A stretch of DNA of 64,000 bases from Lophium mytilinum (Eukaryota): positions 227,397 through 291,396 of the forward strand of contig MU004191.1 of NCBI GenBank assembly GCA_010093605.1, read 5' to 3'. A model generated the notes under the pieces. It was not told the origin of the DNA. It saw only the letters and a program-made list of their open reading frames with translations, and did no database searches. Shown here one piece after another: positions 26,417 through 51,699 of this stretch. The position numbers and the translations under genes are program-made. The number at the start of each line of letters is the position of its first letter. Position 1 is the stretch's first letter.

Positions 26417-26514
26417 AGCGGCGTTGTTGATATGTCGACGCGTGTGGTGTTGAGCGTGAAAGGCGGATCGACAGGGCTCACTGCGGAGACAGCGCCGTAT
26501 GGCCGGCTAGGCTG

Positions 26515-28660: not shown

Positions 28661-28760
28661 TAGGGGGTAGAGTGTATAGTAATAGATATATACTATCTAT
28701 CTAATATATACTATCTATAATATATATACTACCTATTAATTAGGGGGTATTTATAGTTTA

Positions 28761-28976
28761 AGGCTTAAGTATTAGTAGTAAGAATTCTATTCTAATATTT
28801 TGCAGCTTAAGTATTAGTAGTAAGGATCTTATTTTAATATTTTAAGGCTTAAGTATTAGCGCAGGGTAAATTTCCTCTACGCTAATACTTAAGCCTTAAA
28901 ATAGAATTCTTACTACTAATACTTAAGCTATAAATTATTAAAATAAGATTCTTACTACTAATACTTAAGCCTTAAG
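28761..28976. repeat. Palindromic cluster of a 13-bp motif (3 forward + 3 reverse copies)
   Basis: GCTTAAGTATTAG at 28763, 28805, 28847. CTAATACTTAAGC at 28882, 28916, 28958. Further copies at 30243 and 30275, and degenerate copies at 37596 and 37636. Confidence 0.85.
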
Positions 28977-29199
28977 TTAGATACTATATAGAGTATATAT
29001 AAAACGGGAAGGCTATATAGAAATAGAATCTATTACTTTATTATATCTTAGTAAATATAAGTTTAAATTATATAAATAGATAGCTAAATTACGCGTTTAA
29101 ATATATATATTTACATCCGCGTACTAAATATATAGAAATATTAATTAGTAGTAATAAACTTTTAAAGTTATAGTTATAGTTTCTAAGTATATAGTTAAA

Positions 29200-29460
29200 T
29201 AGGCTTAATTCTCTACTTCTTTCTTTTAGTATAACTAGCTCTAGGCTTTAGAGCCCGCTTAAACGCTACTATATCTTCTATAGTATTAATCTAAGTATAG
29301 CGCTTACTTTTAACCCTATATATACTATATTTACTATCTAGATTATTATTAGTATAGAAATTAATATTATACTAATAATAGCCCCTAGTAGGTATATTCT
29401 AGGCGCACTCTAGGTATATACTATAGGCTAGGCCCGCCTAATTCTAGCTATATTAGCTAT
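29200..29460 (-). pseudogene. RIP-degraded small Cys-rich segment resembling a Zn2Cys6-like cluster
   Basis: De-RIP reading CLECAQNVPTGGYHRCDINFHTDDDPDGKCSVCRVKSKRC (Cx2C-x11-C-x13-Cx2C-x6-C). Only one Cys codon (TGC) is intact; the rest are restored from TAT/TAC. Confidence 0.3.
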
Positions 29461-30439
29461 TAATAAGCTTTATATAGGTAAGCTTAGCGCGGTAAAAGTA
29501 CTTTTAAAGGGCTATAGTAATAGTAGAGAAGCTAAAAGTAGTAGTAAGATTATTAGTATACTAAGAAGGAGTTAGTAGGCCTAGAATAATAGTAATAGTA
29601 AGAGGAAAGAGTAGATAGTAAGCGCAGCGCTTTCTATATAAATAGGTTAGCTAGATTCTTAAGCTACTATACTAGAAATTATATATAGTAGAGGGGGATT
29701 AGTTTTTTCTTTTTCTTTTTTATTTTTATTCTTCTTTTAATTAGGTATATTATAAATATCTCTACTAATAGTAAGAGTAGAAAGAGAGTATATAGGCCTA
29801 CTATATACTATATAAAGCCTCTAAGGGCTAGAATTCTTTAAGCTCTTACTAGAGAAAGCTTCTAGCGCCTTATCTTTAGCTTAAACGCCTATTATCTTCT
29901 TCTTAGTAAGAAGTAGCCTAGCTACTACTATCTATATTACTAGAGGATCTAGGTAAACTCTAAGAGGCCTAAAGAGGTATATAGTAAGAGATAGAGAGGG
30001 GGAGGGCTCTATAAGAATATTATTAATTAGGCTATTAATAGAGCTTTAATTACTAGTATTATTAGCTATAGTATTATTAGCTATAGTATTATAAAGATAG
30101 TAATTAATAGTATATAAAGTCTAAAGAAAAAAGAGAGTTAAGAAAAAAATAAAAATATATAGAAAAATAAATAATAGCTATTAAGCTTTACTATATAACT
30201 TTATTCTATATTAATATATAAGCTATAGATTATCTACTAGTGCTAATACTTAAGCCTTAAAATATCTACTAGCGCTAATACTTAAGCCTTAGCCTAAAAA
30301 GTATATAAAAAATAGTAAGGCTATATATAAAGTATATATTAAATAAAAAGGCTATATATAGTATATACTTAGGCCTTAACCTACTTCTCTACCTACTTCT
30401 TCTTAATTTAAGTATTAGTATTACCTCTTTTATATACAT

Positions 30440-31440
30440 CTAGCTTAGCCTAAATTCTATCTATCTCTTCTCTTATATAGTATACTTCTCTAGCTATATA
30501 ATAGAACTACTTTTAAGTAAAGTAATTATACTAGCTCTACTTAATAGTAGCCCTTAGAAAGTTACTAAAGTTATAATAGGCCGGGCGTAGGTAATAGTAA
30601 TACCTATAGATTTATACCTTTAGCGTAGTAAAGGTTAACTCTATAGGGTTAAAATCTAGTAAGTATAGCGGTAGAAAATATACTAGATATTCTTACGCCT
30701 AGATTATATATATAAGAGCTTTCTTAGTATATATTCTAATATTATCTAGAATAATAATCTTTAAGCGGCCCTTAAACTTACCTTCTATAGCTAGTAGAAA
30801 AGTAGTAATAATTTAGCTTTAGAACTTCTTAGTATTAAAGTAGCCCTCTTATATAGCTATATATAGTAGCTACTCTACTATACTTATTACCGCGTATATA
30901 CTCTATATATTTCTATAATTTATAGGCCTCTAGTAGTATATAGAACTTCTAATAGATATATATATATAATAGCGCTAGCTAGTCTTCTTATTAAATATAG
31001 ACTTATTAAGAAAGATAAGATCTTTTAGCTTATAGTAACTAGTAAGCTCTAAGTACTTTAACCTTAACTTCTTACTTACGCAGTTTAACTAGCGCTAGGC
31101 CTACTTTTTACTTTATCTATTTCTCTTTATTATATATAATATAGTTAGCTATAAAGCTCTAATACTATACTTAAAATTAAGCTATATTTAAATCTTATCT
31201 TAATTACGCTAGCTATCTTCTAGAAGCTATTAGAGCACCGCCTTTTTATCTACTATAGTAAGTCTTCTTAGCTATTCTATCTTAATTTATAGAGGCCTTA
31301 TAGGCGCGCTATAAAGAATTATATATTTTTCTATATTATATACTATCTTCTAGTAAATATAAATAATCTTAGTAATCTATTTAGAATACTTATTAAGCTA
31401 GAGAAGCTATATAATATCTAGGCGCTATAAGGCTAATATT
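30440..31440 (-). pseudogene. RIP-degraded IS630/Tc1-type (DDE_3) transposase
   Basis: Minus frame, de-RIPped: N-terminal HTH region with GRPRRLT, then LIFLDESIFNEKTGWR (~30975-31020), IIILDNIGIH (~30728-30758) and FLPPYSPDFNPIELTF (~30630-30678). These are the three catalytic D, D, E motifs of DDE_3 transposases. Confidence 0.85.
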
Positions 31441-32164
31441 AGGAATTTCTAAATTAAGAAACGCGCGGAGAATACTAGTTACTTACGTAACCTTCTAGAA
31501 GACTATATATTTTACTGCTCTACGGGCTTTACGCTACTCTATAAAAGTTTACCTACTTTTTATATAAAATTTGCGCGCAGGCTGTATAGATAATTCTTAA
31601 TTATAGATAATCTAGCATTATAGATAATTATTATAGTTAATAACTACTTTATAGTCCTTATAAATATAGCTATCTACCTCCTCTATCTAACCTTTTAAAA
31701 CCGCCTAATCCGCCTAGGTTATAGATAGATAGATAATAACATAGATAGGGCCTTATATACTAAATACATAATTATCGCGTATAGTAGGAAATTTAAAGTT
31801 GCACTAGTATATTTAGTTATCTCTTCTTACTACCTCTACTAGGGCTTTATAGTCTATAGTAACTTTATATATATTATAGACTTTACGCGTTATATAGATA
31901 GTAATACCTATATATATTTCTAAGAATTATATAACTATTACTAACCTTAATAATTTTAATATCCTAGTAGACTATTAGAGCTAGCAACGCGTGCACTAGA
32001 TGTCCGGGCTAGAAAATAGCACGTAATATGCACGTTGCGTGTTAGATAGTAGACTATATAGTAATTTAGAATACATCTAATTGCGGTATATATATTATAA
32101 AATAGAAAGATAATACTAAGTATAAGATAGAGCCTACTTATACTCTATTTACTAATTCTATACT

Positions 32165-33900
32165 ACTATTCCTCGTCCCTAATACTCTTAAGCAACTTAA
32201 TAACTAGCCGCAGGCTTTCTTCTCTAGAATCCTGTGCCTTAACGCAGGCAGCTATAAACTTTTAATATTAGTTCTTATTAGACATAATTATAGTATTATT
32301 TTTATACTAGCTGTATTTATCTTTCTTTATATAGAACTGCTGCCTAAATTATATAAATAAGAGATTAAGAGGGCACTGCTTCTAGTAGTTCTTTATCTTA
32401 ATACTCTTCTTAGCCTCTCTATAAATTAGAGCTAAGCGGTATAAGTTATTATTAGTAAGGGGCTCTATATTATTAATCTTATTATTCTATAGTTAATATA
32501 ATTAGTATATTATACTTTAGCTCTCTATCTTATATAATTACCTATACTATCTATAATATCTAATAAAGTATCCCTAAGGGGGGGGCTAAATAGAATTAAA
32601 TATAGTAAGGATAAGTACCTAGAGTTAAATAGTTATACTTTGCTCTTAATGCGCTTTATTAGCGCATATATCTTCTCGCGTTAGTTAATAAGGTTCCGCT
32701 ACTAATCCCGCTTCTTTACTTCTATTCTCGCCACCCTTATAGTAAAGGCCTGTTATTATTCTAGTATTATATCTTTAGTTAAATCTAATATATTATAGCA
32801 GTTAGGGTTATTATATATATCCTTATTATTATCTTCTTTATAGTTTATATACTAACCTACCCGTTTTATAATAAATTCTTGCTAGTAGAATAATAGTTAG
32901 TGCTTATAGTATAAGCTAAGTGCCCGCTATTAGGCGAGATATTTATTATAATTTACTACTCTAGCTTATAGTTAGTATAGTCTTATATAAGAGGGGCGGT
33001 AGTTAATACTAGTAGTAGTAACCCCGTAAATTAGGTTTATGCACTTCTAGCCTAAGGTATATTTACTAATAGCGTAGTAGAGGTAAGTATATATATATAT
33101 AATAGTATTACCTAAGAGGGGGTTAAAAAACTCTTTTAAGTATCTTTATATCTCTAAGGCGTTTATAGACTATTCTATAAAGAGTAGGTCTATAACTACT
33201 ACCTAGATAGCCTTAGCTATAAAGATTACTAGTAGCCCCTATAATCTATTAGAATACTATCTAACGCTAGGTTAGTAACTAACCTTAGCTTAGTCTTTAT
33301 CTACCCTAAAGAAATAGTTCTAATCCTTTATTAGCATTAACGCGGTGCTAGTAATATCTAGAGTTATAGAACTAAGACTATAGCATTCTTATATAATATT
33401 ATAAGCAACCTTTATTATAGCGTTATAGAAATAACTAAAAGCGTTATAAATCTAGGTTATATATTATAATTAGCTATTATATAAGGTTATAGAAGTAGGG
33501 AGAGAGTAATATATCTTCTACATGTAAAAAGAATCTAGAGTAGTAGGAATATTAGCTTAAGTATAGAATAGTTAGTCTTTATAGATATCTACCTATATTT
33601 ATATTAGTACTTACTAAAATATATCTAGCCTAATACTCTTAGTCTAGGCTATAAGGTTATTACTATATTTCCTAATTATATTAGTACCTAATACTATACT
33701 TCTAAGTATCTAGTATCTTATTTATTCTTCTACTACTATATATTTTACCTCTATAGTTAGTACTTTAGTATGCCTATCTATACTATTCTATATTTAAATT
33801 ATTTTACTGCGTTATTTTATACTAAGGGAGCTAATATAGTTATAGATAGGTGTGCCTCTGCCCGTGCCTAAGAAGCGGCTAGTAGAAGAGGAGGATAGTA
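32165..33900 (-). pseudogene. RIP-degraded ORF with a DUF6532-like domain
   Basis: A long continuous frame, interrupted only by TAG/TAA at RIP-type positions. About 33045-33135 de-RIPs to EFFDPLSGDTIVHVCTYLYYAIGEYTSG, resembling the FxPxPxxTIxxVxTxIxxxIxEWxTG signature I recall for DUF6532. Needs HMM confirmation. Confidence 0.45.
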
Positions 33901-36159
33901 GACCGCTTAATATAAAGGTATTAGACCTAGTTATTTAGTTAACGGCCCTGCAGGCTTCTATTCTAGCCGCTATTTTATCTTAGACTACGGCGGCACTCTA
34001 ATAGGTATTTATTAGTATATACTACTTAGTAGAGTGGCCGTAATATATATATAAGCTAATCTTACGCTTAAAGTCTATTTACACGCGGAAGTTAGTATTA
34101 CTAGATTAGAAGATAGGCGTATGCCTATTCTTATTCTCTATACCGCATTTTCTCTTTCTAGTAAGAGATAAGGTGCAGCTAGACGGCTAAGATAATATAG
34201 TATTACTATCTTAGAATATTCTAGTAGTATATTCTCTTTTACTTATTAAGTTCTATATATTTATTATTAGTCGGCAGGCGTTAGAGTTAAGAAAGCTAGG
34301 CGCATTACTATATTAATTAGTTTTAAGGTAGCACGTTTTTACTTCTTTACTATCTATAGTTATATGCGTTAGCTATATATATATTAATATATACTATAGA
34401 TAGGGTATATAGTATAGTATGTTTAAGTTATATAGTAAGTCCCTATTTAGGGTAGAGAGAGATAGTCCTATATTACCTTTTACTATATTTAAGTAGATAA
34501 TATTAAGCCTTACTAAATAATAGATAGAGGGCGTGTAGTAAAAGAATATTCTATTTCTTAAGGTAGAGTGCAAGAATAATAACTATAAAGGGAAGTAAAG
34601 TAGATTATAATTAAGTAGCGTAGAGAGAAGGGAATAAAGGGAAAGTAAGTTGCGCGTTTATTATAATAGAATATAATAGAGCTAGCTAGATATAGTCTAT
34701 ATATATTAACTTAGTATCTTTAGCTAGTTATATGCCTCTTCTCTATCCCCCCCTTAATAAAGCCCTATTATTCTATATAATTAAATACTTCCGTCTACGC
34801 AATTACCTCTTCTATTATATCGCCTTAGACTAGAGCTTATACTTATGTACTTGCGTTAACTTCTACTAATTGCTGCACGCGCGCTACTACCTTCTACTAT
34901 TATTTCTAGATAGTATCTTCTATACTATTAGAATAGTAGTTAGTTAAAAGATTATAGACTTTATATTCTATATTATTAAATAGATAGCTAGCTAAGTTAG
35001 AGGCCCTAATAGAGGTATTAATATTATAATACGCAGCCGTCCCCTTATTACTAACTTTATCCTCGGTTAGGCAACCTACTTAGGCGTAAATAACCTACTA
35101 GCTATCTTCTCTAGCTATAGTATATGTCCCTCTTCTATATTATCTATAATAAACGCCTCTACCTTTACTAACTAAATTACGCAACCTTAAGCTATTATAT
35201 CCTTCTCTCTCTTAGCCTAAAACACCCTCTTTACTACTATTTAGGCCTTTTTTCTATAATTCTAGCCCTCTATTAGTTACTATACTATAAGCGGTTATAT
35301 ACTATATTACAGGGTACTCCTCTATAGTAGAAAGGTCCCTAGATAGAAAAATAGAAAAATAGTCTACTAGTAGTAAATTCCCCCCCTATAGAATCTATAT
35401 ACCTAGTTAGAATATTTAGCTATATAGCTATACTTCTAGTTCTAATAATAGCTATAGTTTAGATAACTCTATACTACCTATATATAGAGATATTAAGCCG
35501 TCTATATTCTAGTTTAGTAAGATAGTATAAGATTATAATAAGGCCCCGCCTTAGAGTAGTATAGTTCTAGTCTAGTTCCCTTAGTAAGGCGGGCTATAGA
35601 ATAGTCTAATTATAAATTAGGTTAGCTAGGTATATAGACTCTTGCGCTATTTAAGTTCTCTACCTTTTATAGTTCTACACTCTTATCTCTTATATAACCC
35701 TTATATTCTTTTTAACTTTTTCTATAGCTTTAATCTCTTACTTATTTATCTTATTACGCAGGCATTTATAACTAGTAGAGGCTAATATAGATATAGATAG
35801 AAGAATAGTATAGTGCTAGCTAAAGTAGATAGATACAGGGGTATTATTTATCTATATTAGCTATATTAATTAAAATTATCGTATATATCTAATATACTAT
35901 TTAGCTAAGGCTTAATAATTAGGGTAATATAGTCTAGTTCTCTTAATAAACTCTAATATACTATTACTATATACTAGTCTATCTTATTCTTAACTAGAAA
36001 CTTAAAATTATCTATAATATAGTAATATATAGTTTTACATTCTATATTAAGACTAAATATTATATTTAACCTAGTAATAAGTATACTAAATTTAGAGGCT
36101 AGTATTACTAGTATACTCTTTAGTAGTATAGGTAGTGCAAGTTTATATACTAGTATAAT

Positions 36160-37069
36160 NNNNNNNNNNNNNNNNNNNNNNNNNNNNNNNNNNNNNNNNN
36201 NNNNNNNNNNNNNNNNNNNNNNNNNNNNNNNNNNNNNNNNNNNNNNNNNNNNNNNNNNNNNNNNNNNNNNNNNNNNNNNNNNNNNNNNNNNNNNNNNNNN
36301 NNNNNNNNNNNNNNNNNNNNNNNNNNNNNNNNNNNNNNNNNNNNNNNNNNNNNNNNNNNNNNNNNNNNNNNNNNNNNNNNNNNNNNNNNNNNNNNNNNNN
36401 NNNNNNNNNNNNNNNNNNNNNNNNNNNNNNNNNNNNNNNNNNNNNNNNNNNNNNNNNNNNNNNNNNNNNNNNNNNNNNNNNNNNNNNNNNNNNNNNNNNN
36501 NNNNNNNNNNNNNNNNNNNNNNNNNNNNNNNNNNNNNNNNNNNNNNNNNNNNNNNNNNNNNNNNNNNNNNNNNNNNNNNNNNNNNNNNNNNNNNNNNNNN
36601 NNNNNNNNNNNNNNNNNNNNNNNNNNNNNNNNNNNNNNNNNNNNNNNNNNNNNNNNNNNNNNNNNNNNNNNNNNNNNNNNNNNNNNNNNNNNNNNNNNNN
36701 NNNNNNNNNNNNNNNNNNNNNNNNNNNNNNNNNNNNNNNNNNNNNNNNNNNNNNNNNNNNNNNNNNNNNNNNNNNNNNNNNNNNNNNNNNNNNNNNNNNN
36801 NNNNNNNNNNNNNNNNNNNNNNNNNNNNNNNNNNNNNNNNNNNNNNNNNNNNNNNNNNNNNNNNNNNNNNNNNNNNNNNNNNNNNNNNNNNNNNNNNNNN
36901 NNNNNNNNNNNNNNNNNNNNNNNNNNNNNNNNNNNNNNNNNNNNNNNNNNNNNNNNNNNNNNNNNNNNNNNNNNNNNNNNNNNNNNNNNNNNNNNNNNNN
37001 NNNNNNNNNNNNNNNNNNNNNNNNNNNNNNNNNNNNNNNNNNNNNNNNNNNNNNNNNNNNNNNNNNNNN
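36160..37069. other. Assembly gap (910 N)
   Basis: Run of n bases. The true length is unknown. Confidence 1.
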
Positions 37070-37779
37070 ATTAAGAAGCGTAATAAATATAATAGTATTT
37101 TAGAGTATTTTCTAAATTAAGTAGAAAGGTTATAAATAGATAGCGTCTAAATTAGCTATAGAGTAGCATATAAATGTATTATACTATCTTAAAACTAACC
37201 TAACTTATCTCTATATCTAATTAGCTATAGTGTTAGTAGTATATTAAAATATAGGTAGCTAGAAAGGGCTTAGTATTAGTAAGTATATACTTTTCTACCT
37301 ATTTTCTTTTAGCTAGTATGTATATATAGCACTAAATTATACTACTATAGACCTATAGTGCACTCTAATTTATAGGCTGCTCTATTTAAATCTCTTTATT
37401 AGAAATATAAGTAAGATTAGACGCATACTATCTACTAATATTCTGCGGTCTAGATTAGAATAGTAGAATAGAGAGTTCTTGCAACCTTTCTATACCTTAT
37501 AATATATAAGAATATTACTAATAATATATATAGGCCTATAGAGTATTAGCGCTGCTATATAAATATTTACCTATATAATACTATAGTTTATATTACTAAT
37601 ACTTAGGCCTTAAATTATATTTAAGGCTTATACTACTAATATCTAAGCCTTATAGTAAGTATATAGTTAAGTAGATTATATTAATATTAAAAATAGGCAG
37701 TCTATAGTAGACCTACTATAGATATAGTATACTTATTAACGCGGCGATTATAGGTATATTATAGAAGTAGAAGTTAAAA

Positions 37780-40700
37780 TAGTTTATTTTATAATGTCTA
37801 CTATAGAACTATATATACTATATAATTAGTGCATTTAGTAGTTACCTTAGTACTAATAGTCCCTTAGTTTTTCTTCTTTTTTAGTATACTTTATATAACC
37901 TTATATATAAACTTATTATTATTAACTATATAGAACTAAGCTAGTATATCTACCGGGTTATTACCCCCTATATAGGCGAGAATAATGCTATATATTCTAT
38001 TAGACCTCTAGTTCTTCTACTATACTCTAGATATAATCTATATCTTAAGGCTAGATATAGTCTATAGCTCTATAACTATTACGCACGTGCATTAAAAAGT
38101 AAAGTTAGAGCCTTCTACTCCTCTAGTCTTCCGGTTCGCAACTAGAATATTAACAGCCGCTAGATTATCTTAATTACGCTTAAAGCCGGTATTAAATTAC
38201 TTCTATTACTTAACTATTAGTAATAAATATAACTATATAAGCTTTTTAGTTAGTATAGTCTTTATAATTATCTAGTATTAATTATATTAGTTTATTAGAT
38301 AATAATTACTAATTATAGATAGAGATAGGTGGCAACTTATAATATAGATAACTAAATTAACTATAGGCTTCTTACTAATAATTAGTATCTTCTTCTTCTT
38401 AGCTTAAATGTATTAAACTATGCTTCTAATTTTCTTTAGCTTTCCTAAATTAGCTAGTAGATTAGTATACTATTTAGTAAGGGTACTCTCTAAGTCTATA
38501 TAATCTATCTAGCCTATATTTTTAATATCTTCTAGAGTAAAGATTAGGTTACTTATTAAGCTAAGCTCTTTCTATTATGTCTTTAACTTAGCCAGCCTAG
38601 AAATTAATGTAAAAATCCAGGGCAGCCTCCCCTTACCTAAGCCCGTTAGAAAGGCGCCTAGGCTAAAGAAAGGCGGCGGCTTATTAATTACTACTTTATA
38701 CCTTAGCTATTCTTTATACTCTTCTTTAAGGTCTATATATCTCTCTCTAATAACTATATAGTACTTCTTAATAAAGAGTTTAAAGCGGTTAGGTATACTA
38801 ACTATTACCTGCTATATAATATAGAGCGGCATATCCCCTAAAAAAAGGCTATCTAGGCTAAGGCTTATTAGTATTCTATAGATACTTATAGCTATAATTA
38901 TATCTAATACTCTCTAGAGACGCCTAGATAATTTAGAATTATTCTATAGTTACCGCTCTTTCTCTATTTTTAAGGTAAGATAGTAACCTCTAGCCCCTAT
39001 AAGGTCTCCTTAATTAATACGCCGGAGGGTAGGGCCTTAATAAAGAATATTAAACTTATCCCCTTTATTTATATTCTCTTTCTCTAACTCCTTATCTAGA
39101 AGAGTATTATTCGGGTTATCTTTAATATTAGCGTCTAAATTAGTTAAGTCCGCTATCTAAGTTAGCGTCTATAAACCTCTATATAGTATAACTATTAGAT
39201 ATAATAGAGTTTTAGGGCCGTAGAGAAAAGAAGTCCTACTATAGAATAAGCCTCTAGGGTAGCTATATAGATTAGCAGCCTTATTAAACCCTTTTAAGTT
39301 CTAGCTCTAATAAACCTAATTAAGCGCACGGTTAATATTCGCCTATTTGCGCGTAGTTAGGCGGAATATATACTAATACTACATGGACTTAATATAGCTA
39401 AAAGCTATAATATATAGAGATATATTATTAAATTCTAGATAGAACTTATTAAAAAAAACAGCCCTATATATATACGTGGGGGTTACTTTATTACTATATA
39501 ATAGGTTATAGAATATTATAAAGGTCTCTAGTAAGTTTAAATTCTTATTATATTTTTTATTAAAGGTCTCCGCGCTTATAATAATAAGGTAGGTTTTTAC
39601 TCTTAGATTTAGCTTATACTACATCTAACTATTTATTTCTTAGTAGATAGGCCTAAGGTTCTTCTAGTCTTTAAAGGTAAAGTTACCCTCTATAATACTT
39701 CTATATACACGCCAGATATAAAGTCTTCTACTAGGGACCTTAAAATCCTTATTCTTATATTTAATATCTAGCTAGTATTTTACCTTCTTATAGGTCTAAT
39801 TTAGTAGACTCTTCTTAGTAAGCTAAATAATGTAGCCTTTAACGCTGCTAGAACGCGGAGTATTAGTACTAGCCTCTCTAGTATAAGTAGTAAATGCTAT
39901 TAATATTTATAGAGTTTTTCCTATCCTAGGGGGGTTTATAAGAATTAGCCTACGCGCTCTACTAGTAAGACCTTAGATAATACTATATATCCCGGCCACC
40001 TAGTATAGGGCCGCATGCATCTTTAGGTTAGTAGTTATTTCTAGCAGCTTAAAGGTTATATTACTAGAAAAATTCCTATATATTAGAGGTAAACTAAAAA
40101 ACTATAGTACCTTCTTAAATGCTGCTACTAAGATATTCTTTATAGAGCTTAATATTAGGGCTATTATAGTAGTAATATTAATAGTATCTATCTTTTCTAT
40201 ATTAGCTATAATTATCTTATTTATATCTATAGAGGGTCTAGTCTTGCTAAGACTATATATATTAAATTTAAGCGTAGCCGCAATATTAATACTACTAATT
40301 ACTATATCCCCTATAACTTAGGTATTACTAGAGATAGTCTAGCCGCTCTCTATAGTAACTATAAGCGCATAGAGTTATTTTTAGGTAGTTAAATACTAAG
40401 TAGTTCTAGGCCTAAGCGCCCTAAGCTACTATATAACCTTATTATAAATAATACTAGGCTAAATAGAATTACGCATTAACTTAGTATATAGCTAGATAAT
40501 ATTAAGTATCTATTAGATTAGTTACGCTTTCTTCTCTATTTATAGCTTCTATACCTTCTTCTCTACTAGTAGTTTCTACTTTCTTTATTTCTCTTACTCT
40601 ACCGTCTCTTCTAGCTATTTCTACCTTTTTACTTTCTCTTTAGTTATAGTCTTAGCTAGCTCTCTCTCCTTCTATTCTATCTACTTCTTAGCCTTCTCTG

Positions 40701-42500
40701 CTATTACTATATCTACTAGCTCTCTCTTCTTTATCTCTTTCTTCTTTATTTCTTTCTTCTTTCTTTCTTTCTCTACTTTTACTATTTCTACTAGCGCTTT
40801 CTCTACTAGCGCTTTCTCCGCCAGCTCTTTCTCCGCCAACTTTTTCTTCTTCTTCTCTTTCTCTTTCTTTTCTCTTTCTACTTTCGCTGTTTCTACCAGC
40901 TCTTTCTTCTTTTTTTCTTTCTCTTCTTTTACTATATCTACTAGCTATTTCCGCTTCTCCCCTTTATTCTACTCTATAGTAGAATTAACCCTATCTATAT
41001 TAGCTATATATATATCTAGACTTATAGTTAAGTTAATAATTATTTTATCTAAAGTGTTAGCGGCGGTAGATTTAGGTAGACTCTTAGCCGCGGCAGCCTT
41101 AGGCTTACTGCGGCGGGGGCGTTTCTTAGCCGGGTAGATACTAGGGGGCGGGGACTTAAAAAAGTGCGGACCTAGCTATATATTAGTTAGTAGTAATATT
41201 TAATAATTAATAATAATTAATATACGTCTAGTCTTAAGTTTAGATATTACCTCTTTAATATTAAGGCCCTTTACTATAAAACTAAGCACTATCTCTTTAG
41301 GTATACTCTTTATTTTCTCTAATAGCGTAGTTAGATAGAAGTTATTCTCTATTAACTTCTAGGTTCTATTAACTATAATAATATACTCTAGAGGGTTAAA
41401 GTCTATAAAAGTTCTATTAATAGCTTCTAGAAACTTTATAAAGCTATAGTCTTCTAGCTCTAGGCCTTTACTACTAGACCTTACAAGATAGAGAGTAAAA
41501 AGGCGTCTAGTACTTTTCTACTGCGGCAGCTAGTATATTATAGTAAGGACCGCGTGTAATAGCTAGAGCTTAAATAGGGCATTTTAGGTAGTAATATCTA
41601 GAGATTTTATTAGAGAGCTAAGGCCTACTAATATAACTAACTTTGCGGACAAGGCTAACTTAGACTGCTTCCGCTTCTTATTACTTTTAATAATACTACC
41701 CTATATTTTATATTTCTTATAGACTTTATACTAGATTAATATCTAATATACTTACTTCTACTTAGCTAATATAGAAGACTTCTTAAATATGCAACTCTAT
41801 ATATTTATAAAAAGCGTATATATTTTAGACTAAGTATCTAAGTAGGTGTTATTCTTACTATAGTTATTTTAGCCTAGTTATAAAAGACGTTTTGCCTGCA
41901 GGTATGCTTTAGAGTTCTCTATTAGTATAAATAAGTTAGCTTCTATCTAGTACTATATCTTAAAAGCTAGACCTAAGCCAGCTATAATATTTATTTAACT
42001 TAAGTAGCCTTTAGGGTTCTTAGTAAAATTAGATACTATCTTACTCTATATAGATATATTATATAGCAGATCTACTAGAAGTATTATAGCCTTCCTCTAA
42101 GTAGGTCTAGAGTATTAGTAGCTACTATAGAAAGGCTAGCGGCTATAGTAGTTATCTAGCTTATCTAGCTCTAAATTACTATTATAGTCTACTTAACTAG
42201 AGTCTATACTTAATAACTATTTATCTAGGTTAAACTTCTTATTATTTTAATTATTAGGGAGGCGTTATTAGCAACTAGTATATTAACCTAATCCTTTAGC
42301 TATATTAGGTAAATAAGATAAGAAGTTAGGGTATAAGAAAGGTAGATAGAAGGGGGTAGAGTTAGTAGATAGAATAGCGTTATATAGTAATGCGGGTAAG
42401 GGCAGGCGGAAGGCTAATAATATTAGATAAACAGCAATAGTAAGTAATAAGTAAGGTAGTTACTTACCTATAAAGTTATAATAGTAGACGCTACTTATAG
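37780..42500 (-). pseudogene. RIP-degraded SNF2-like superfamily-2 helicase/ATPase with an N-terminal K/E-rich coiled coil, intron-containing
   Basis: De-RIPped motifs in the correct order: Q-motif PYQVAG (~40000), motif I GLILVDPPGMGKTLQ (39907-39951), Ia YIIWLTKKSLLDQT (~39800), II VFFDEFH (39439-39459), SGKL (~38440), IV EKILIISE (~38380), V TGGVEGSNFT (~38110), VI QIxSRVxRKNQ (38008-38040). K/E-rich tract at ~40540-40960. The 5' end is approximate. Confidence 0.8.
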
Positions 42501-44849
42501 TATAATTAACCTTAGGATTATACGCGTTAAAAAATAAGGTAACTATAGTAGAAGATATATAAATCCGCGCGCGCTAGTAATAGAAGTAGCTACTTTTAGT
42601 TATACTTTTAAATAGGTATAACATCTATTAAAGAAGTACTTATAGAGCGGTACTAGAAATATAGTAAGTGCAGGCAAGCCTAAGGCGTAGAGAAGAAAGT
42701 TAGCGTATAAGGGAGGAAGGAGAAAAAGAAGAGAGAGAGAAAAGAGAGAGATAGAGGAGGAGGAGAATAAGAGAGGAAAGATAGGTAAGAATAGTAGATA
42801 AGAATTAGAATTAAAAGGCTAGATAGAAGGTAAAGTTTAAAGTAGCGCATAATTAAGTATATAATTAGTAAACAGGCTATATTATAATATAATAGAAGTA
42901 AAGAGTTATATAGCTTAAAAAACTCTACTACCTAATAATTAGTAATAATCGGCCTCTACCTTAATATTTATCTATACCTATTAGCTTTTAGTAATGCTTA
43001 ATAGATTAGTAATAACTTCTACCTAATATTACCTTCTACTTACCTAGGTTAGTTAATATAGGGAGAAAGGCTAATTTCTATATATAGGTGCCCCCCCCTA
43101 TTATTTAAGTTAGTGTTATAAGCTCTACTAGATTAGCGGCTAATAGGTTAAAGTCCTTAGAATAGAAAGAGAAGTTAGCTATAGCTATCTAAGAAGGTAC
43201 TATACTACTTATTATTACCTAAGCTACTACGCGCCTCTCTACCTCTAATAGTAGCTTATTATCTACTAAAGTTGCGCCCTATAAGCTAGTAGGCAGTAGT
43301 ACTAATTTATATATCTTCTTACTATCTACTCTTTTTATAAGTATTACTAATTTAGCTTATACTATAGAATAGCTTACTTACCTACTCTCTCCCTTACTAA
43401 ATAAGCACCTTTACCCTCTAGCCCCTCTACTAGCGCGTACACTACCTCTATATAGAGAACGCCTACTTTAACCTACCCGGGAAGACTAGCGTTACCTACC
43501 TATATATTTATTATACTTCTTATCTACTTACTTACTCCCGCTAGCGCTAGGCTAACTATAGTCTATATTTAACTAGCCTATATATCTTTCTCTCTTATAG
43601 CCCTCTACTACTCTAGGCGGCGCTTTCTAGAGGCTCTACTTAGTAGTTTCCGCTCTCTTTCTATCTCTTACAGCTCGCGCTCTAATAACTAGGTTAGCGC
43701 GCTTCTTCTTGCGGATTTAGCCTTTCTAGAAGTAGTAGAATTATATAGTTATATTTTATAGGCCACGCCTCTAGAATATATATAGGTTAGTAATGCTTAG
43801 GTTTACCTATTATAGTATACTATAAGGCTAACCCTTAAGTATAGCTTAAAATTAGTAGAGGTAGGTTAAAAGTAGATAAGAAAGATAATAGAGTAATACT
43901 TAGATATTTAGAGGACTAATTAACTACTATATAGTACCTGCATTCTACTAGGTAATTTAGCTATTAAATACGCGTTTAGATAAAAGCCTCTTAACGTAAC
44001 TAATATCTTACTAGACGTAATAGTACTTAGTTCTAATTTAATTATTAGCCTAATATTATACCGGCCTTAACTCTAACCCTCTAGAAGGTAGCTACTACTA
44101 TAGCAACTTACGCCTTTTATAATAATAGCTAATATACTACCAGCGCATATTAAACTAAAGCTTTAAACTCTTCTAATAACCTACTTACTATTAAATTATA
44201 GCCTCTTCTCTAACCCTAACTATTTTATTTAGAATATAAGCGTATCTACCTATACTAATACTAACTAACTATTTAAATATATTAGGCCTAACAGTAATAT
44301 ATAGTCTAGAATGGCAAAGGCTAATATACTTTAGATAGAGACTAAGTAGTAAGTCTAGCTTATGCGCAGTAGTATCTAGACTTAATAGACTAATCTATAT
44401 ATAGAGAGGTTACTACTAAGCCCTTCTTTTAACTCTACTCTAAGGGTGCTAACTAATTCTTTAATCTTCTATATAGTATACGCAAAATCTTAGTTATAAG
44501 AAATAAATTAAATAAACTATAGGGAGCGGAACTTAAAAAGATACTTACTACTTAAAAGACTATAATATAGTCTACTAATAGGTTTAAGTCTATAGTAACC
44601 TTTAAAGAGAAATATAGCAACCTCTAAAAGCACTAGAGATATACTAAATACTAACTTAATTCTATAGTAAATATTCTAATCTTAAAAGGCTAAATAGGGG
44701 TAATAGATGCCTACGCCCTTACTATTATTCTAATAACCATGCCCAATGCCACCCGTGCGGTAAAGCTTGCCAAGGCGCTATAAGACTAAGAGCTACTAAA
44801 GTAAGTTATAATTAAGTGCTAATTTAGAATCTCTACTTAGATGCGCCCT

Positions 44850-46970
44850 AGCCTACCTACTAATATACCGGGTATATAATAGTGCACTTACTCTTATTAT
44901 TTTAATCTAGATATATATAAACTATAAAAGGTAGCCTCTATAAATAAGCCTAAGTACTACTATAACCTTACTATTAAGGGCACTCTTAAGGTTCTTAAGA
45001 TTCTAGAAGAATACCTACCGCCCTTATTTAGAGGCTAGATAATTAGGTGTAATACTAACGCGACCGCTAGTAAAGAGCTAGTAGAGGTCCCTATCTTTCT
45101 TACTATTATTCTAACCTAACTAGCTACCCCTGCTAAGCTAGTAAAACCCTATAAGAGGTTAATATAGAACGCTATTTACTATATAAGGGTCTAAGATAAA
45201 TATAAGTCTTATATTAGTCTACCTTAGAATCTATATTCTAAATAGTATATACCTATTATCTTATATATAATCTATAGAGAATTAGCTAATAGAAGTCTAG
45301 CCTTATAAATATAGCTTATATTTATAGTTCTAGTATTTAGATTACTATATACTAATAAGCTATACTAGATTATATTCTATAGCTAAGCGGACTCTCTACT
45401 TAATACTGTTTATACTAATAAGAAGTTTAAGGCTATAATAATAGATAGTTTTACCTAGATGCACCTAGTTATATCTACGCTAGATACTCTAGAGAAGTTA
45501 GCGTCTATAGAAGTATAAGCTAGAGAATTTTACAGCCTTAAGTAGCCCCTAAACCTACTATAAACTACACCCCCGCTCCTAGAGTTATAGAAGGCTAAAC
45601 TTCTTACCTAAACTAATCTACTATTTATTAGAATTATAGAGCACCTACTAGTGCCCTAGTATAACTACTATACCTACTCTTCTATTAATACTCTAAGTAA
45701 GTATATAGACCTAGATTATATTCTTTATTTTAAGATTACTACTTCTAATATAAAGAAGTAAAGTCTAAATAATAAGCACCGGCATGCTACTTAGACGGCA
45801 TATAAAAATATTGCCTAGCGTACTATACTAGTTAACTTATTATAGAAATAGGTTAATACCTAGACTTATAAGAAGTTTTATAAGGTATTATATAACGCAG
45901 CTGCTAAAATACTTATAGTATTATCTATAACGCTAAATATAGTAAATATAATAAATAATATAGTAGAGAGCTTTATAGACGCAACTAAGCCCCTTTATAT
46001 ATATCTAAATTAGTACTAGGTTCTAATAATAGAGGATTATATACTACTAGAGAGACTATATACTATTAATATTTCCTACTAAGGCTACTCTAACTAGTTT
46101 CTATCCCTGTTTAAGTTAGTATAGATTATAGTTAAGCGAGTTTATAACTTTAAGATAACTAGTAGACCGGAAGGGCATAGTAAATATAATATTAAGAATA
46201 TCCTTAGGTACTATACTAAGGTACTAGATAAGTTTAAGGCTAGCCGGGCTAAGGCTAGTAATAGTGCAGAGGGGGATAAATAGAACGCTGCTAAAGTCTA
46301 CTATATTAATAGTCTAATCTTCTATATAGACTACTATATAGCTAGAGGTTTTACTATATTTATCTAAGAACTAATTACTAATAGTACTATTAACTATTAT
46401 AAAGTAAGTAGCTATTTAGCAGTTAGCTATTACTACTCCGCCTTTAGCTATAATAGAAGTAATAACTTCTACTCTAAGTGCAATACTAGTAAAGATAATA
46501 ATACTAACTAAGATAGTACCTATACGCTATACTCGGGCGATAATAAATTAATACGCCGGCGGCTAACTATCTTAGATTGTATCTATAAGGCTATTCTAGA
46601 CCTTAAGAACTGCGCTAGACTCCTTAATAGAGATAGTAATAGTAGTAATAACTTAAATGCGTAAGATAATTATAGACTATAGAATCCACGCAAAAATAAG
46701 CTTAGCTAGAGAATATAGAACTATATAGCTAAAGCGTTAGCTAAAATATAGTAAGTAGTAGAGGGCTACTATAATTAGGAATAATTAATAATAATTAAAA
46801 ATAATTAGACATTCTATAGGCGGCCTAGGTAGACTATAGTATAAGAGTTACTACTAGCACTAGTTATAGGCGCCGGTAACTTAGATAGAAGGTAGCATCC
46901 CCGCTACTAATTTAGAGGTATTAGTAATCTAGAAGTCTTCTATACCTATATACTTAATTTAAAATACTAA
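44850..46970 (+). pseudogene. Long RIP-degraded reading frame (~700 codons), function unrecognised
   Basis: One plus-strand frame reads as plausible protein, with stops only as TAG/TAA at positions compatible with Q/W/R codons. It is preceded by an intron-like GTAAGT..GCTAAT..TAG at ~44801-44840. Confidence 0.45.
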
Positions 46971-48459
46971 GTTATTATTATATTTACTATAGGTTATATA
47001 TATAAATACTAGATAGTAATATATATAGCCTATAAGCTAATATCTTTCTAGGGCTAAATATCTACTAGCCTAATTTCTAGCACTATTAATAAGGGCTTAA
47101 TAATTCTTTAGCTTCCCTATTAACCCGGTATAGAATAGAGCCTAGAGTTTTACTAGAGTGTTATTATAAAAGTAGCTAAAGAACTTAACCTACTTTTAAT
47201 GGCGCGGTATAGACTATTAAAGAAAGGCTTAAGTACTTTTATAATCTATAAGAAGATAGTCCTCTACTCTTACTACTTACTAGTCCTTATAAGTTATCTA
47301 CTCTCTATCTACCTTATCTTTATTAAGTGTAGTTATTACTAATATATATACCGCTAATTCTACCGCGTATAAGAGGCTTAAGTAGCTAAATTAGTAATAT
47401 TATAAAACTCTCTACCTAACTAGCGCCTTCTAGCTATTATCTAATTTTGCGCCGGCTAAGAGAGACGTAGAGTTTAACCTAGGCTACTTAATGCGCATCT
47501 AATATTACTATCTTATAGCTATTCTATAACTAATACTTACCCTAGCGGCTATCTTCTTAATAACGCCGGCACTCTTAGTAGATGCCCGTTAACTCTATTC
47601 TACTAGACTAGTAATGTATCGCCGCCTAGCGCTCGCCTTATAGAAGGAAGTAACGCGCTTAGACTTAGTATCTTCTTCTATATTACCTAGATAGTACTTA
47701 CCTAGAGTTAAGAGTTCTTTACTATAGCTAGTAACTACGGTAGAAAGTTAGATACTAGAAATTAGTAAAAGGTAATACTTACTTTTAATACACGCTATAC
47801 TATTAGAACTAGGGAAACTAGATATAACTACTAGTATATACTTAAAACTACGCCTACTATAAAGGTTTATACTAGCTATAAAGAATATAGAAATAATAGA
47901 AATAATTATATATAGGCTTTAGAGTTGCAGTTTAAGAAAGTAAGCTATAGTCTTTAACGCGTAGATATATTAAGGTTCTAGGCTAATAGAATAGCCCGCC
48001 CCCTATTAGAATATATTACGTGCTATTAAAGAATAATAAGTACTATATACTAGCCTATAATCTAATATAATCTATAATAATTACTTATAATCTATAAGTT
48101 TCTATATAGGGCTAACTAAATTTAACTAGAAATAGAGTATATACCTTCTACTAAATATAGATACTACTATAAGTTATTTTAAATACTTAGTGCCCTAAAT
48201 AAATATATACTATACTATAAAAAGCTTCTTAAAATACTGCAGCAGGTCCCGCTTACTAATACTAGAACTACTAGATCTATAATCTAGTCTTATATACTCT
48301 ACGTTATTTAGATAATAGACGGGATATTATTTAGAACGCCTAGATTACTACTAGTAAGTCTACCTCTACTAGCTAACCTCTATAATAAGATAAAGTATAA
48401 GATAAATAGAATAGAGCTATATATCTCTAGTAAACTAAAAGAGTACTAGAGTCCGCCTT

Positions 48460-51400
48460 TTATAAATAAAGGCCCTATAAGCTTAATATATAATAACCCG
48501 CCGGAGGCTACTAAATTCTATATTCCGCACTAATAAGGCTAACTAATAATATTATCTATATTATTGCTATAAGAGGAAGTATATCTCTCTACTAAATTAG
48601 GCATGCCTGCAGGGGCGTCTATTAGATAGGCTAATACTAGATAGTAGATATAAGTATTATTAGAGACCGCTATCCCCCCCGCCTATAAAGGCGGTATTAA
48701 AGCTTACTAACTAGTTACTCTATTATAGGGACTAATCCCCCTTCTATCTATTTTAATTAGCGTTTAACTATACTTTTATATTATAGCTTTAGTAGATTAG
48801 CTGCACTAAGAATAATATTAACCTGCTATTTAATAATATCTACCTTAAGAGCATATTCTCTAACTTTCTTATATTTACATCGGGCGATTTATAGAATAGT
48901 AAACTAGAGAAAATTAAATATAGCGTTAATAATACTAACTATATAGTAGAGATGCTATATTTCCTAAGTAAAAAATAAAGCTTAAGTAGAGAGTAGTATC
49001 TAGTATACTACTTTAATATAATAGTAGCTATATTATTCCTAATTAGACACCGCCCTTTCTATAATTACCTTATATTTATACTAGTTTAAGTCTATAATAT
49101 AGAAGGCTAGTAGGTATATACTAAGTTATATATATTAGACTAGTAGTAGTAGACTTAGTTAAAGCTTCTAGCGGGGGCTATAGTAATACCTATCTTACTC
49201 TCCGTAGATAAGATATAGCTTATCTAATATTGCGGCGATAAGAGCGTATAGCTAGTCTATCTAACTATTAGTAACCTAGATAGAACTATATGGCGCTTAA
49301 ATATATTACCTAGCACTCTACTACTAGGCTTTATACTAAGCACGGCGGATAAAGGAGACTATCTAAAGTATTAGCTATACTATAGCTCTTTAGGCTATAT
49401 TCTTAGATATTAGTAAAATTCTTACTAATACTAAGTAGTTTTCTAATATAAAATAAGCTATTATAGAATATACTACTAATAGAATTATACTAGAATACAG
49501 GGATAGTAAGAATTAAAGGTGCTATCTAGTATTATACAGAATTATAGCTAATTATAAAGAATAGAGCCTACTTATAGGTATTAAATTTAGAAAACACTAT
49601 ACTATATACTAGGTACTATTACATTAATATAAAGACCTAGAGACTAAACATACTATAAGGTCTTACTACTTAACTATTATTTAGATTAAATAGCAACGTA
49701 ATAATAAAGAGCGTTTAAAACTTCTACTAAATAAAGTACTATATAATATAGAGGCTATAGAGCTTAATATAGAGTTATATATATATTCTATAAATAACTT
49801 TACTTAGAAATACCCCTATACTAATATCTACTAGATAATAATAATAGATATTCTATACTAACTATTTACGGGCGTTATTTATAACCTTATTAAATAGGTC
49901 TAGCTACTAGTAGCGGAGGTCTACACCCTAGCAATTAGAAGAAAAGATGCCTATATTCTAATAGAAAATAAGAGCGGCTTAACCTAGCTAGATAAGTAAT
50001 TTAAGGACGTGCTGCCTTTCCCGGGTCTATCTATATTTAATAAGAAGAATTTTAGTAAACTCTTATAGTATACTAGCTCTAAATAAAAGTCTATAGCCCG
50101 CTAGCTTATAGTAGTAGTAGCACTACTACTAGAAGTAAAGGCGCTAAATACGCTCTAGTTTATCTATGCAATACTTAATTTTACTATTCTAGTATAGTAT
50201 AAAATATATAATAAGGCTACGCTAGAGTATATAGAGCTAGCGATAGCTTAAATTAATATATATAAGTTAGAATTTAGGATATTTAGACCTAGAAATAAGA
50301 ATAGAAACTACGCCTTCTACTACTTAAAATTCTATATTATATAGTACTACGTTAATTTTATATAGAAATTTAGCGCTATTAATAGCTATAACACTAGCTT
50401 AAATAGTAAAGTAAAATACTAACACCTAGTTAAATTACAGTATTAGTTAATAAACTATAAGGACTTTCTACCCTAGATCTACTAATTAAACTAGAGACTT
50501 ATAAATAACTAGGCCATAAATAATATACTAAACTACTAATATTACTATCCTTAACTAGCAGCGATAAGAGATATGCTAATGCAATAGATAATAGTATTAG
50601 AAAGTATTAACATCTTAAACTTTAAATAGCCTAGATATAATAATTCCTATAAAGGCTAAATAGTATACTATCTAAAAGTAAGTATTAAGTATATAGCTAA
50701 TATAAGCTAGAAGCTAGACTTTATAGCCGCCGCCGCCGTATTTATTTAAGAAGAGAGGCGTAAGATCTAAGGCTAATATACTAAGCCTAGCAGCCTAGAT
50801 ATATTAGACCCTAATCTATTCTAGGTTAGCTACCTCTAGCTTAAGTTCTATGCTAGTATTTTATATTAGAAGTAATTAGGTACTAGTAAGAACCTAGAAA
50901 GCCTTATAAAAGAAAATCTATAGTATAACCCTAAGTAGTAGAACTAAGAATAGTAATATAACTATCTATAGGTATAAGAGTATAGCTTAAACTATACTAA
51001 AAATAGAAAGACGCGCGTTAGTATTACTAATAGAAGGTTAGTAGAGTAGCTATAATTTATAGTAACTATTATAGACTCTATTCTAAAGGGTAAAGATACC
51101 CTATAGGCGGTATACTCTAGAGTTTTTATTTACCTTCTAGCGCTAATTAATAACGGAAAGCTATATTATATCTATAGCCTAGTAGAGGTAGCTTTTTAGG
51201 CTTCTAATAATAGCCGCCGCTAATAAAAGCTAGAAGTATATTAATTCTATCTACTACTATAAGTCCTCTAAAGTGCACATATTATACTAGCTACCTTTAG
51301 CCCGGACTCTACCTGTTTTTTTATTAATAACTATATTAACTAGAATTAATATAATACACTCTATATAAAAGACTAGAAGATAGAGGTATAAGAGATAATA

Positions 51401-51594
51401 AGGTAGTACTAGCTTAGCAGTTACACTAAAGAGATTAAAGCTACCCTAAGAGTTAAAGACGCAGTAGAGTTTTTAGTAAAGCGCGCAAGGGTAAAAGTAC
51501 TTACTAACGCCTCTTTCCTACAACTAAGCCGGTAAATACTAAGAAGTAGTATAGTAAAAAGAAGCTATAGCACTAGCAAGCAACGGCGTAGGTA
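48460..51594 (+). pseudogene. RIP-degraded Plavaka-family transposase
   Basis: De-RIPped: FLIGHRPF..LVFAPVRVYN.EGQRVYTEL..DWWWQTQ.KLPAGATV.PILLS.DKTQL.Q.CGDKS.WPVYLTIGNLD (~49035-49280); CGDGKNRRCYPVL..IMADYEEQSLLTG; DILHQLFTGV (~49850); LDKRFKDVPPFPGL; YPKFHIMQHYVDFIRKFGAIDGYDT; C-terminal FINNYIDWDQYNTLY (~51320-51365). These match the conserved blocks of Plavaka transposases (Pfam Plavaka). Ends are approximate. Confidence 0.9.
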
Positions 51595-51699
51595 GAAATA
51601 AGGCCGCAAGGAAAGATATTCTTAATTTTTCCCTACTATTAAGAGATAATTAAGCATTATTTAGCTTTATTAACCTCTAAGGCTAATTAATATAAGATA

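Follow-up and report, generated by a model that had tools for sequence, protein, structure and literature searches.

A probable SNF2-family ATPase gene remnant in a 31.7-kb fungal element saturated by repeat-induced point mutation

Introduction

According to a 2012 meeting report, Kapitonov described the fungal Entons and Intons, DNA transposons with 5-6 conserved proteins that are derived from En/Spm and IS3EU (PMC3520738) and whose conserved genes include an SNF2 helicase (PMC3520738, PMC3627910). Our literature search found no account of these elements fuller than that meeting report and one further sentence. Here, we analyze a stretch of 64,000 nucleotides from Lophium mytilinum (GenBank assembly GCA_010093605.1, contig MU004191.1, positions 227,397 to 291,396 of the forward strand; hereafter the window, with position 1 as its first letter), which contains an AT-rich island of 31,695 bp that is bounded by terminal inverted repeats (TIRs) and saturated by repeat-induced point mutation (RIP). 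A long open reading frame (ORF) on the minus strand of this island is probably the remnant of a gene for a DNA-dependent ATPase of the SNF2 family, one of several genes in a many-copy, RIP-hit element.

As far as the brief published descriptions allow, Entons and Intons, which are derived from cut-and-paste transposons, resemble the present element in that an SNF2 gene is found among several genes: here, the SNF2-like gene and at least four other coding-like remnants lie within the inverted repeats. They differ in their termini, since those observed here fit neither CA..TG nor the IS3EU or Plavaka ends (compared by description only), and in that an IS3-type transposase is weakly indicated here. 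Entons and Intons are the nearest precedent, thin but direct, and the element in the window is probably a member of a barely documented kind, that of complex DNA transposons of fungi that encode an SNF2 helicase themselves.

AcademH and KolobokH are DNA transposons that carry helicases with DEAD and Helicase_C domains (PMC10799480). Together with Helitron, they share with the present element the presence of a helicase of superfamily 1 or superfamily 2 (SF2) as an accessory or core gene of a DNA transposon; the helicases described in that source are of the DEAD/Helicase_C or PIF1 type and not SNF2, whereas the DEAD-box profile is blank here. Another related case is X3X3R8 of Parastagonospora nodorum, a repeat of nine copies containing duplicated endogenous Rad5/SNF2-like helicase and Rad6 genes (Hane & Oliver 2010, PMC3017866). 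Like the present element, it is repeated in the genome of an ascomycete with active RIP, has been affected by RIP and contains Rad5/SNF2-like helicase genes; however, its gene models as reported there are still recognizable, whereas here ordinary searches are blank, and one helicase and no RING-like pattern are found. In addition, TET/JBP dioxygenases are carried by KDZ, Plavaka, EnSpm, IS3EU, hAT and other transposons (Kojima 2025, PMC12730594), which provides an example of fungal DNA transposons with a chromatin or epigenetic enzyme proposed for escape from silencing. In that case the enzyme is a different one, the terminal features are unlike those reported below, and SNF2 is mentioned 0 times in that paper.

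The large size (tens of kb), the inverted ends and a coding remnant reading inward just inside one end are also reminiscent of Starships. Starships, however, are generally present in few copies and have a tyrosine-recombinase "captain" as the first gene at one end, whereas the element examined here exists in many diverged copies.

An island bounded by inverted repeats and saturated by RIP

GC content is 0.25-0.35 within the island (approximately 26.5-58.2 kb) and 0.45-0.63 in both flanks. Similarly, TA/AT is 1.6-2.0 in the island and 0.76-0.83 in the flanks, and (CA+TG)/(AC+GT) is 0.16-0.23 and 1.1-1.2, respectively; the usual thresholds for RIP are above approximately 0.89 for the former index and below approximately 1.03 for the latter. 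These dinucleotide indices are the signature of RIP, and the host is therefore a RIP-active filamentous fungus. By both indices, as well as by the transition-type differences among copies described below, the island has the character of a RIP-mutated repeat. No leakage of RIP into the flanks is visible by composition.

Since RIP only makes C>T and G>A changes, a purine/pyrimidine (RY) coding of the sequence is invariant under it. In plain letters, the two arms of the inverted repeat (26515-26711 and 58013-58209) are 197 nt long and 94% complementary; in RY space they extend to 199 nt and are 100% identical, every difference between the arms being a transition. The edges of the RIP domain coincide exactly with these arms, and therefore the unit that RIP saw as repeated was the repeat-bounded unit of 31,695 bp. 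RY self-comparison of the whole island revealed no long terminal repeat (LTR) pairs, no internal duplications and no other long repeat; the lesser repeats found were a hairpin at about 28.8 kb and, at about 56.4 kb, a short tandem repeat. The hairpin-like inverted repeat (28754-28979), located in the left part of the element, has 84-nt arms that are 99% RY-identical and a 66-nt palindromic center. A run of 921 N letters (36150-37070), either a gap or a masked stretch, also lies within the element, and its content is invisible to all analyses.

Copies of the element were sought in X1 and X2, two public runs of one sample (approximately 45 Mb of contigs) that is possibly the assembly's own source. 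About half of the sampled words from 37800-41600 are present in these runs. When their contigs, approximately 200-300 nt in length, were aligned to 37100-57000 at a likeness of at least 80%, 5,259 contigs of X1 and 4,963 of X2 could be placed; all 30 bins into which this region was divided are covered, and the summed contig depth, which is not a copy number, is alike across them. The X1 contigs spread over a wide range of likeness (1,464 at 99% or more, 1,802 at 95-99%, 1,593 at 90-95% and 400 below 90%), and the places at which they differ comprise 1,365 transitions versus 11 transversions. Within the ORF itself, eight X1 contigs have C at position 38696, where the window has T. These data show many diverged copies that differ in the manner of RIP, the ORF included, and thus the ORF is part of a multi-copy repeat.

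The RIP island bounded by TIRs, the lack of LTR pairs and the multi-copy nature of the stretch together support the view that the 31.7-kb unit is a transposon carrying the SNF2-like ORF; it was hit by RIP up to its exact ends because it was present in many copies.

Small shares of two air-metagenome runs (X3 and X4) match parts of 37100-57000 at 80-99%, with relatively more transversions than among the copies in the X1/X2 sample, which hints that other strains or species harbor related elements.

A long coding remnant with the motifs of an SNF2 motor

Coding potential was assessed by a RIP-invariant test based on the RY codon pattern and trained on the flanking host genes. The maximal segment (41517-37827 on the minus strand, in the frame whose codons start at 42798-3k) scored 116 bits over 1,231 codons, compared with 11.6±2.1 bits (maximum 17.9) in the shuffled-frame null. 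If a signal in another frame that echoes the purine-rich K/E stretch is set aside, the next-best coding segment in the island reached 37 bits, and no coding remnant there is stronger than the ORF. When the helicase part was scanned by itself in windows of 200 codons, the ORF frame scored 9-18 bits while all other frames were negative or near zero. The whole segment can be read without any frameshift or intron. Its in-frame stops are all TAA or TAG, and in the three segments examined TGA is lacking from all six frames; residues H, Q, W, C or M occur only 15 times among the 1,231 codons, as expected when CpA>TpA mutation hits CAN, TGN and ATG codons. The density of stops fails to mark the frame (6.3 per 100 codons versus 6.6 in a plus frame). 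In-frame stops fall at conserved Q, W or R positions of SNF2 proteins, of which there are examples within the Q motif, directly behind GKT and within motif VI. With 75 in-frame stops, the present copy is dead and without function.

A preliminary description of this DNA had extended the gene over 37780..42500. The upper part of that interval is not supported as part of it: no minus-strand frame has a coding signal at 41.5-42.5 kb, and the signal ends near 41517. On the plus strand, a purine-rich low-complexity stretch (42100-42930), lying between the SNF2-like gene and the gene at 44.4 kb, has coding-like periodicity in several frames, which is probably compositional. The intron-like GT..CTAAC..AG segments that had also been proposed are chance matches, as the strict pattern occurs 1.27 times per kb on the ORF strand of the region versus 1.01 in the island and the loose pattern 2.33 versus 1.69 times per kb, i.e., at the island background rate, and two of the six strict matches overlie motif I and motifs V/VI. 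The long K/E-rich N-terminus, for which the proposed coiled coil finds no support, is present as a K/E-rich stretch, which turns out to be a tandem array with a 15-nt period. Under RIP, its K codons could derive from E, G or R, and therefore the richness in K is partly a RIP artefact. Upstream of this array lies a less mutated basic patch that may represent a nuclear-localization signal (Table 1).

To allow for RIP, each codon was assigned a likelihood for every amino acid, assuming C>T and G>A changes at a rate of 0.42 and host codon usage, and was aligned locally to the match emissions of a profile (gap open 6 bits, extend 0.5). The SNF2 core profile was derived from 32 bacterial sequences including RapA (455 positions), and further profiles were built from bacterial genes of two ResIII-type sets (ResIII and HsdR), the DEAD-box family and IS3-type rve. 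In the main test, the 866 codons of 40398-37801 were scored and compared with a null of 300 codon shuffles. The N-lobe of the SNF2 profile scored 29.6 bits over the Q motif and motif I (40041-39856; null 15.6±2.1, 0/300 shuffles, Gumbel p ~1e-4), and its C-lobe scored 23.7 bits over motifs V-VI, ending in motif VI at 38008 (null 14.6±1.8, 0/300, p ~8e-4). Among the controls, the N-lobe of ResIII reached 22.1 bits (1/300, p ~0.005) and that of HsdR 24.4 bits (1/300, p ~0.0015), with C-lobes of 13.4 (169/300) and 15.7 bits (58/300), respectively, and neither lobe of the DEAD-box profile was significant (N 16.9 bits, 72/300; C 14.8 bits, 119/300).

When the whole island was scored in six frames, both SNF2 lobes had their maxima in the ORF frame at the positions just given, the other frames giving 17.6-21.6 bits for the N-lobe and 15.9-20.7 for the C-lobe, so that the N-lobe has a margin of 8 bits over real RIPped background. 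Of the 63,318 island positions scored over six frames, the ungapped motif-I block (20.2 bits) ranks first. The Q block ranks 70th and lies 25 codons upstream of motif I, where 24 are expected, and the blocks of motifs IV and VI rank 31st and 14th of approximately 63,300. Multiplying an island-wide probability of ~2e-3 for the N-lobe (six frames) by 8e-4 for the C-lobe (downstream 866 codons) gives, by our own arithmetic, a rough joint probability of ~1e-6. The SNF2 scores are stable across assumed mutation rates of 0.2-0.7; naive scoring of motif IV gave 25.3 bits (0/200 shuffles), and a first, narrow SNF2 profile of 29 near-orthologues had given 25.1 and 20.4 bits before it was superseded by the more diverse one. 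No second helicase was found island-wide with the SNF2, ResIII, HsdR and DEAD profiles. As a positive control, RapA, left out of the profile, scored 77-84 bits (N) and 68-69 bits (C) when unmutated. After mutation in silico at 0.42 it retained 47-54 (N) and 48-54 bits (C) in RIP-aware scoring, and 28-38 bits in naive scoring.

When read codon by codon, remnants of motifs Q, I, Ia, II, IV, V and VI occur in this order in a single minus-strand frame, as the preliminary description had proposed. The Q motif reads L-x-x-x-x-x-x-Y-[stop = Q/R/W]-x-x-G, and motif I reads L-x-L-x-(D/N/G/S)-P-P-(G/R)-x-G-K-T-L-[stop], in which both prolines are still encoded by intact CCN; the earlier reading D-P-P-G-x-G-K-T is a fair one, if non-canonical. 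For motif II, the codons AAT AAG TTC TAT would allow, under RIP, a former DExH of the form D-E-(F/L/P/S)-H, at a site that the bacterial profile block leaves unranked; the proposed DEFH is one such reading, and DESH is equally possible. Motif V can be read as A-G-G-V-(E/G)-G-(P/S)-N-L-T, which has one residue more than the profile, and motif VI fits Q-x-x-x-R-(A/V)-[Q/R/W]-[Q/R/W]-x-(G..)-[Q/R/W], which is RIP-compatible at all five of the SNF2 positions Q...R..R.GQ.

The Rad54/ATRX/DRD1 grouping of SNF2 proteins has R-V-W-R-x-G-Q in motif VI and a proline before G-x-GKT in motif I. The ORF has such a proline, and its motif VI is RIP-compatible with R-V-W-R-x-G-Q; by these features, the ORF may point to this grouping, from which it differs in the aberrant motif III discussed below.

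Table 1. Features of the element in the window, with their positions, strands and the basis of each assignment.
Feature	Position	Strand	Description	Basis
Whole element	26515..58209	.	AT-rich, RIP-saturated island, 31,695 bp; taken as one TIR-bounded mobile unit	Composition and inverted repeats
Left terminal inverted repeat	26515..26713	+	199 nt, starts GATTT	Self-comparison
Coding-like remnant inside left arm	26739..28104	+	~456 codons, just inside the arm, reads inward	RY periodicity, 28 bits
Coding-like segment	34360-32146	-		RY periodicity
SNF2-like ORF remnant, RIP-inactivated	37827..41517	-	~1,231 codons, single frame, 75 TAA/TAG stops	RY codon periodicity
Candidate ATPase lobe 2	37978..38460	-	Motifs IV (38400-38353), V (38142-38095) and VI (38040-37978)	SNF2 C-lobe, RIP-aware
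Putative motifs Ia and II, position of motif III	39337..39597	-	Ia-like 39597-39562; II 39462-39424; degenerate motif III position 39372-39337	Codons and RIP-compatible ancestors
Candidate ATPase lobe 1, start	39856..40041	-	Q motif (40026-39991) and motif I/P-loop (39948-39895)	SNF2 N-lobe, RIP-aware
K/E-rich array	40516..40968	-	Low complexity, imperfect tandem, periods 15/45/75/90 nt	Repeat analysis
Basic patch	41083..41133	-	P-A-K-K-R-P-R-R-S-K-P-K..., less mutated	Resembles a nuclear-localization signal by eye
Second-largest coding remnant	44403..46743	+	~781 codons, divergent orientation from the SNF2-like gene	RY periodicity, 37 bits
Coding-like segment	54689-55451	+		RY periodicity
Tentative integrase/IS3-type (rve) C-terminal motif pair	56786..56989	-	Catalytic-E and Y-N..R.H blocks	RIP-aware rve profile
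Right terminal inverted repeat	58011..58209	-	199 nt	Self-comparison

Evidence against the assignment and alternative explanations

Several results weigh against an SNF2-family gene carried by a transposon. In ordinary searches, for which the query was the stop-masked translation (1,266 residues for Pfam and its 853-residue core for phmmer), Pfam returned 0 families at E<=1, the cut-offs of SNF2-rel_dom (PF00176) and Helicase_C (PF00271) not being reached, and phmmer returned 0 matches at E<=1e-3 among 1.84 billion representative proteins. The nine PDB matches were all antibody heavy chains at the level of chance (E 0.49-0.57), and a scan of metagenome contigs for related loci yielded 583 pattern matches, none of which is a relative; thus, no intact homologue was found among the 1.84 billion proteins, the PDB or the metagenome contigs. 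The motifs accordingly fail ordinary Pfam, phmmer and PDB scoring, an outcome which the preliminary description had itself named as speaking against its proposal. We judge ordinary hidden Markov model scoring too strict a test here because the RIP-mutated RapA control also loses score heavily. The Pfam failure is expected after saturating RIP, though it is still a failure of the standard test; the proposed SNF2-like ATPase finds support in RIP-aware scoring, where the signal is specific to the SNF2 profile, and none in the ordinary searches. As the ORF illustrates, genes can be hidden from Pfam and phmmer by saturating RIP and still be detected by RIP-aware profile scoring and RY periodicity.

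Other adverse points arise within the RIP-aware analysis. All profiles are bacterial only; the C-lobe exceeds the best real-sequence background by just 3 bits; and the ORF scores below RapA mutated in silico, and is therefore either farther from the bacterial profile than RapA or decayed beyond RIP. Motifs Ia and II are only RIP-compatible and were not recovered by the bacterial profile blocks. Motif III, (S/T)GTP, is absent at the expected distance from motif II, where the codons read R-L-(T/A)-(T/A)-R; the second R, a CGC codon with no RIP ambiguity, sits where T-P would be, in agreement with the earlier statement that this motif could not be identified. With regard to the element, a target-site duplication is not visible in the flanks, which read ...GGCTG and GGGGT..., no transposase was recognized among the coding remnants by Pfam or, beyond a weak lead, by the rve profile, and contig depth does not give a copy number, nor can the short contigs link parts of the island.

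A chance resemblance, in which motifs are read into non-coding AT-rich DNA, would be in keeping with the blank results of Pfam, phmmer and PDB, as well as with the behavior of ten motif blocks that were chained at any distance within 400 codons; this chain scored 65-76 bits in all six frames, did not discriminate between frames and was dropped. Yet the independent coding periodicity selects the same frame, the motif-I block ranks 1/63,318, the two lobes occur in the right order, each at 0/300 shuffles, and the signal is specific to the SNF2 profile; we regard chance as hardly credible. Somewhat less improbable, while still carrying little weight, is an SF2 helicase of another kind (ResIII/DEAH-type, as in AcademH/KolobokH) instead of an SNF2 remodeller. 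ResIII (22.1 bits) and HsdR (24.4 bits) also match around the Q motif and motif I, motif III departs from the SNF2 form, and fungal DNA transposons with DEAD and Helicase_C helicases are known (PMC10799480); however, the N-lobe of the SNF2 profile scores 5-7 bits higher, the C-lobe is detected by the SNF2 profile only (23.7 versus 13.4, 15.7 and 14.8 bits), and motif VI is RIP-compatible with the SNF2 residues at every one of the five positions compared.

Two further alternatives concern the relationship between the gene and the element. The island could be a mosaic of unrelated degraded repeats whose arms have nothing to do with the ORF, e.g., two fragments of one small element. AT-rich RIP blocks are commonly mosaic, and the missing target-site duplication, contigs of ~200-300 nt that are too short to link its parts and the 921-nt stretch of N that hides part of the island would all suit this explanation. 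The RIP domain, however, ends exactly at the arms, RY self-comparison reveals no LTR pairs or nested repeat pairs, and summed contig depth is similar across the 30 bins, which makes a mosaic quite unlikely. A little more weight, although it is also unlikely, may be given to the SNF2-like gene being a captured passenger, i.e., a host remodeller gene or duplicated host segment that was taken up by a large element or by a segmental duplication, was then destroyed by RIP and had no role in transposition. X3X3R8 of P. nodorum, with its nine copies of endogenous Rad5/SNF2-like and Rad6 repeats (PMC3017866), offers a parallel, and no conserved transposase partnership is demonstrable here. On the other hand, the ORF departs from the canonical profile in its motif I (D/N-P-P-G/R-x-G-K-T) and in its lack of TGTP, and the gene is well within a unit that has its own inverted repeats. 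In addition, no Cys/His-derived Y-x-x-Y cluster (a former RING) was seen by eye between motifs III and IV, and the lack of such a pattern would loosely argue against the Rad5/16 type. Taken together, we favor with moderate confidence the remnant of an SNF2-family ATPase gene in a many-copy TIR element.

Termini, other genes and genomic setting of the element

The element ends read GATTT...AAATC. Plavaka termini are given as TGT..ACA or CATCA..TGATG with duplications of 2-3 bp, and those of the wider CMCT group (Plavaka/EnSpm) as including CA..TG, with duplications of 2-5 bp (PMC12730594). The preliminary description had associated the locus with Plavaka transposases, an assignment which is not supported in view of these ends, the lack of a target-site duplication and the lack of a recognizable transposase; the same ends and missing duplication do not fit CMCT as a whole either. 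IS3EU elements are described as having TA..TA termini and 6-bp duplications (PMC10045372), and by its termini the element matches neither IS3EU nor Inton.

Besides the SNF2-like gene, the element contains at least four coding-like segments of 250-780 codons each (Table 1), and Pfam searches with four of these stop-masked remnants gave 0 matches. The rve profile scored 25.1 bits at 56989-56786 (whole-frame null 18.3±1.5, maximum 22.2, n=40). Its catalytic-E and Y-N..R.H blocks rank 11th and 6th and are separated by exactly the 41 codons expected; as a pair they scored 18.8 bits, a value reached by 2/300 shuffles (p ~0.04 over six frames), with 7.2-9.3 bits in the other five frames. At this site, local coding periodicity is negative and the first and second catalytic D are unplaced. 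The motif pair may mark the transposase of the element. Short tandem repeats occur near the right end, in the form of three 48-nt units (56356-56501) and two 81-nt units at 84% (54863-55022), both close to the tentative rve-like motif.

The flanks contain ordinary host genes, including VID27, a beta-adaptin-type gene, DUF3824 and a family-20 glycosyltransferase (trehalose-phosphate synthase type). A minus-strand host gene has its ATG at 26417, approximately 100 bp left of the island, and plus-strand ORFs follow on the right. The site of the element (26350-26514 and 58210-58640) is thus intergenic, with divergently oriented host genes on either side.

Possible function and implications

The ancestral gene would have comprised about 1,230 codons, with no need to assume introns, and would have encoded a basic patch and a region of charged tandem repeats ahead of a motor core of two lobes. 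The intact protein may have been a nuclear, DNA-stimulated ATPase translocating on double-stranded DNA, and would have served the element as an accessory factor and not as its transposase, either by opening chromatin at element ends or targets or by promoting recombinational repair of the donor gap. The preliminary description had likewise proposed a chromatin-remodelling type of helper encoded by the element, possibly for target access or for evading silencing, in preference to a recently captured host gene. A direct contribution to transposition, through chromatin opening at ends or targets or Rad54-like homologous repair of the emptied donor site, has in our view close to an even chance of being correct; homologous repair of the donor site would restore the copy there and lead to a net gain. 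Among the functional options, a passenger gene without any role appears rather doubtful, and slightly more so a role in countering heterochromatin or methylation-based silencing, as suggested in the preliminary description, which would parallel the TET/JBP genes of fungal transposons (PMC12730594).

A more speculative possibility, to which we give limited weight, is that the element represents an undescribed lineage, at the level of a superfamily, of giant (~32 kb) inverted-repeat DNA transposons in RIP-active ascomycetes, with a divergent Rad54-like SNF2 motor lacking a canonical motif III at its core and with termini unlike those of catalogued groups. If this were true, the motor would be needed to move or copy long DNA through chromatin, by opening ends and targets or by driving the recombinational refilling of donor sites.

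Cut-and-paste transposons normally carry one or two genes, and transposons with a chromatin or DNA motor of their own are few and poorly documented. The value of the present copy is limited, considering that it is dead, that a precedent exists, that its partner genes are without a family match and that no intact relative was found. Nevertheless, a many-copy 32-kb element with an SNF2-type gene would bear on how large transposons move through chromatin and on the origin of complex mobile elements.

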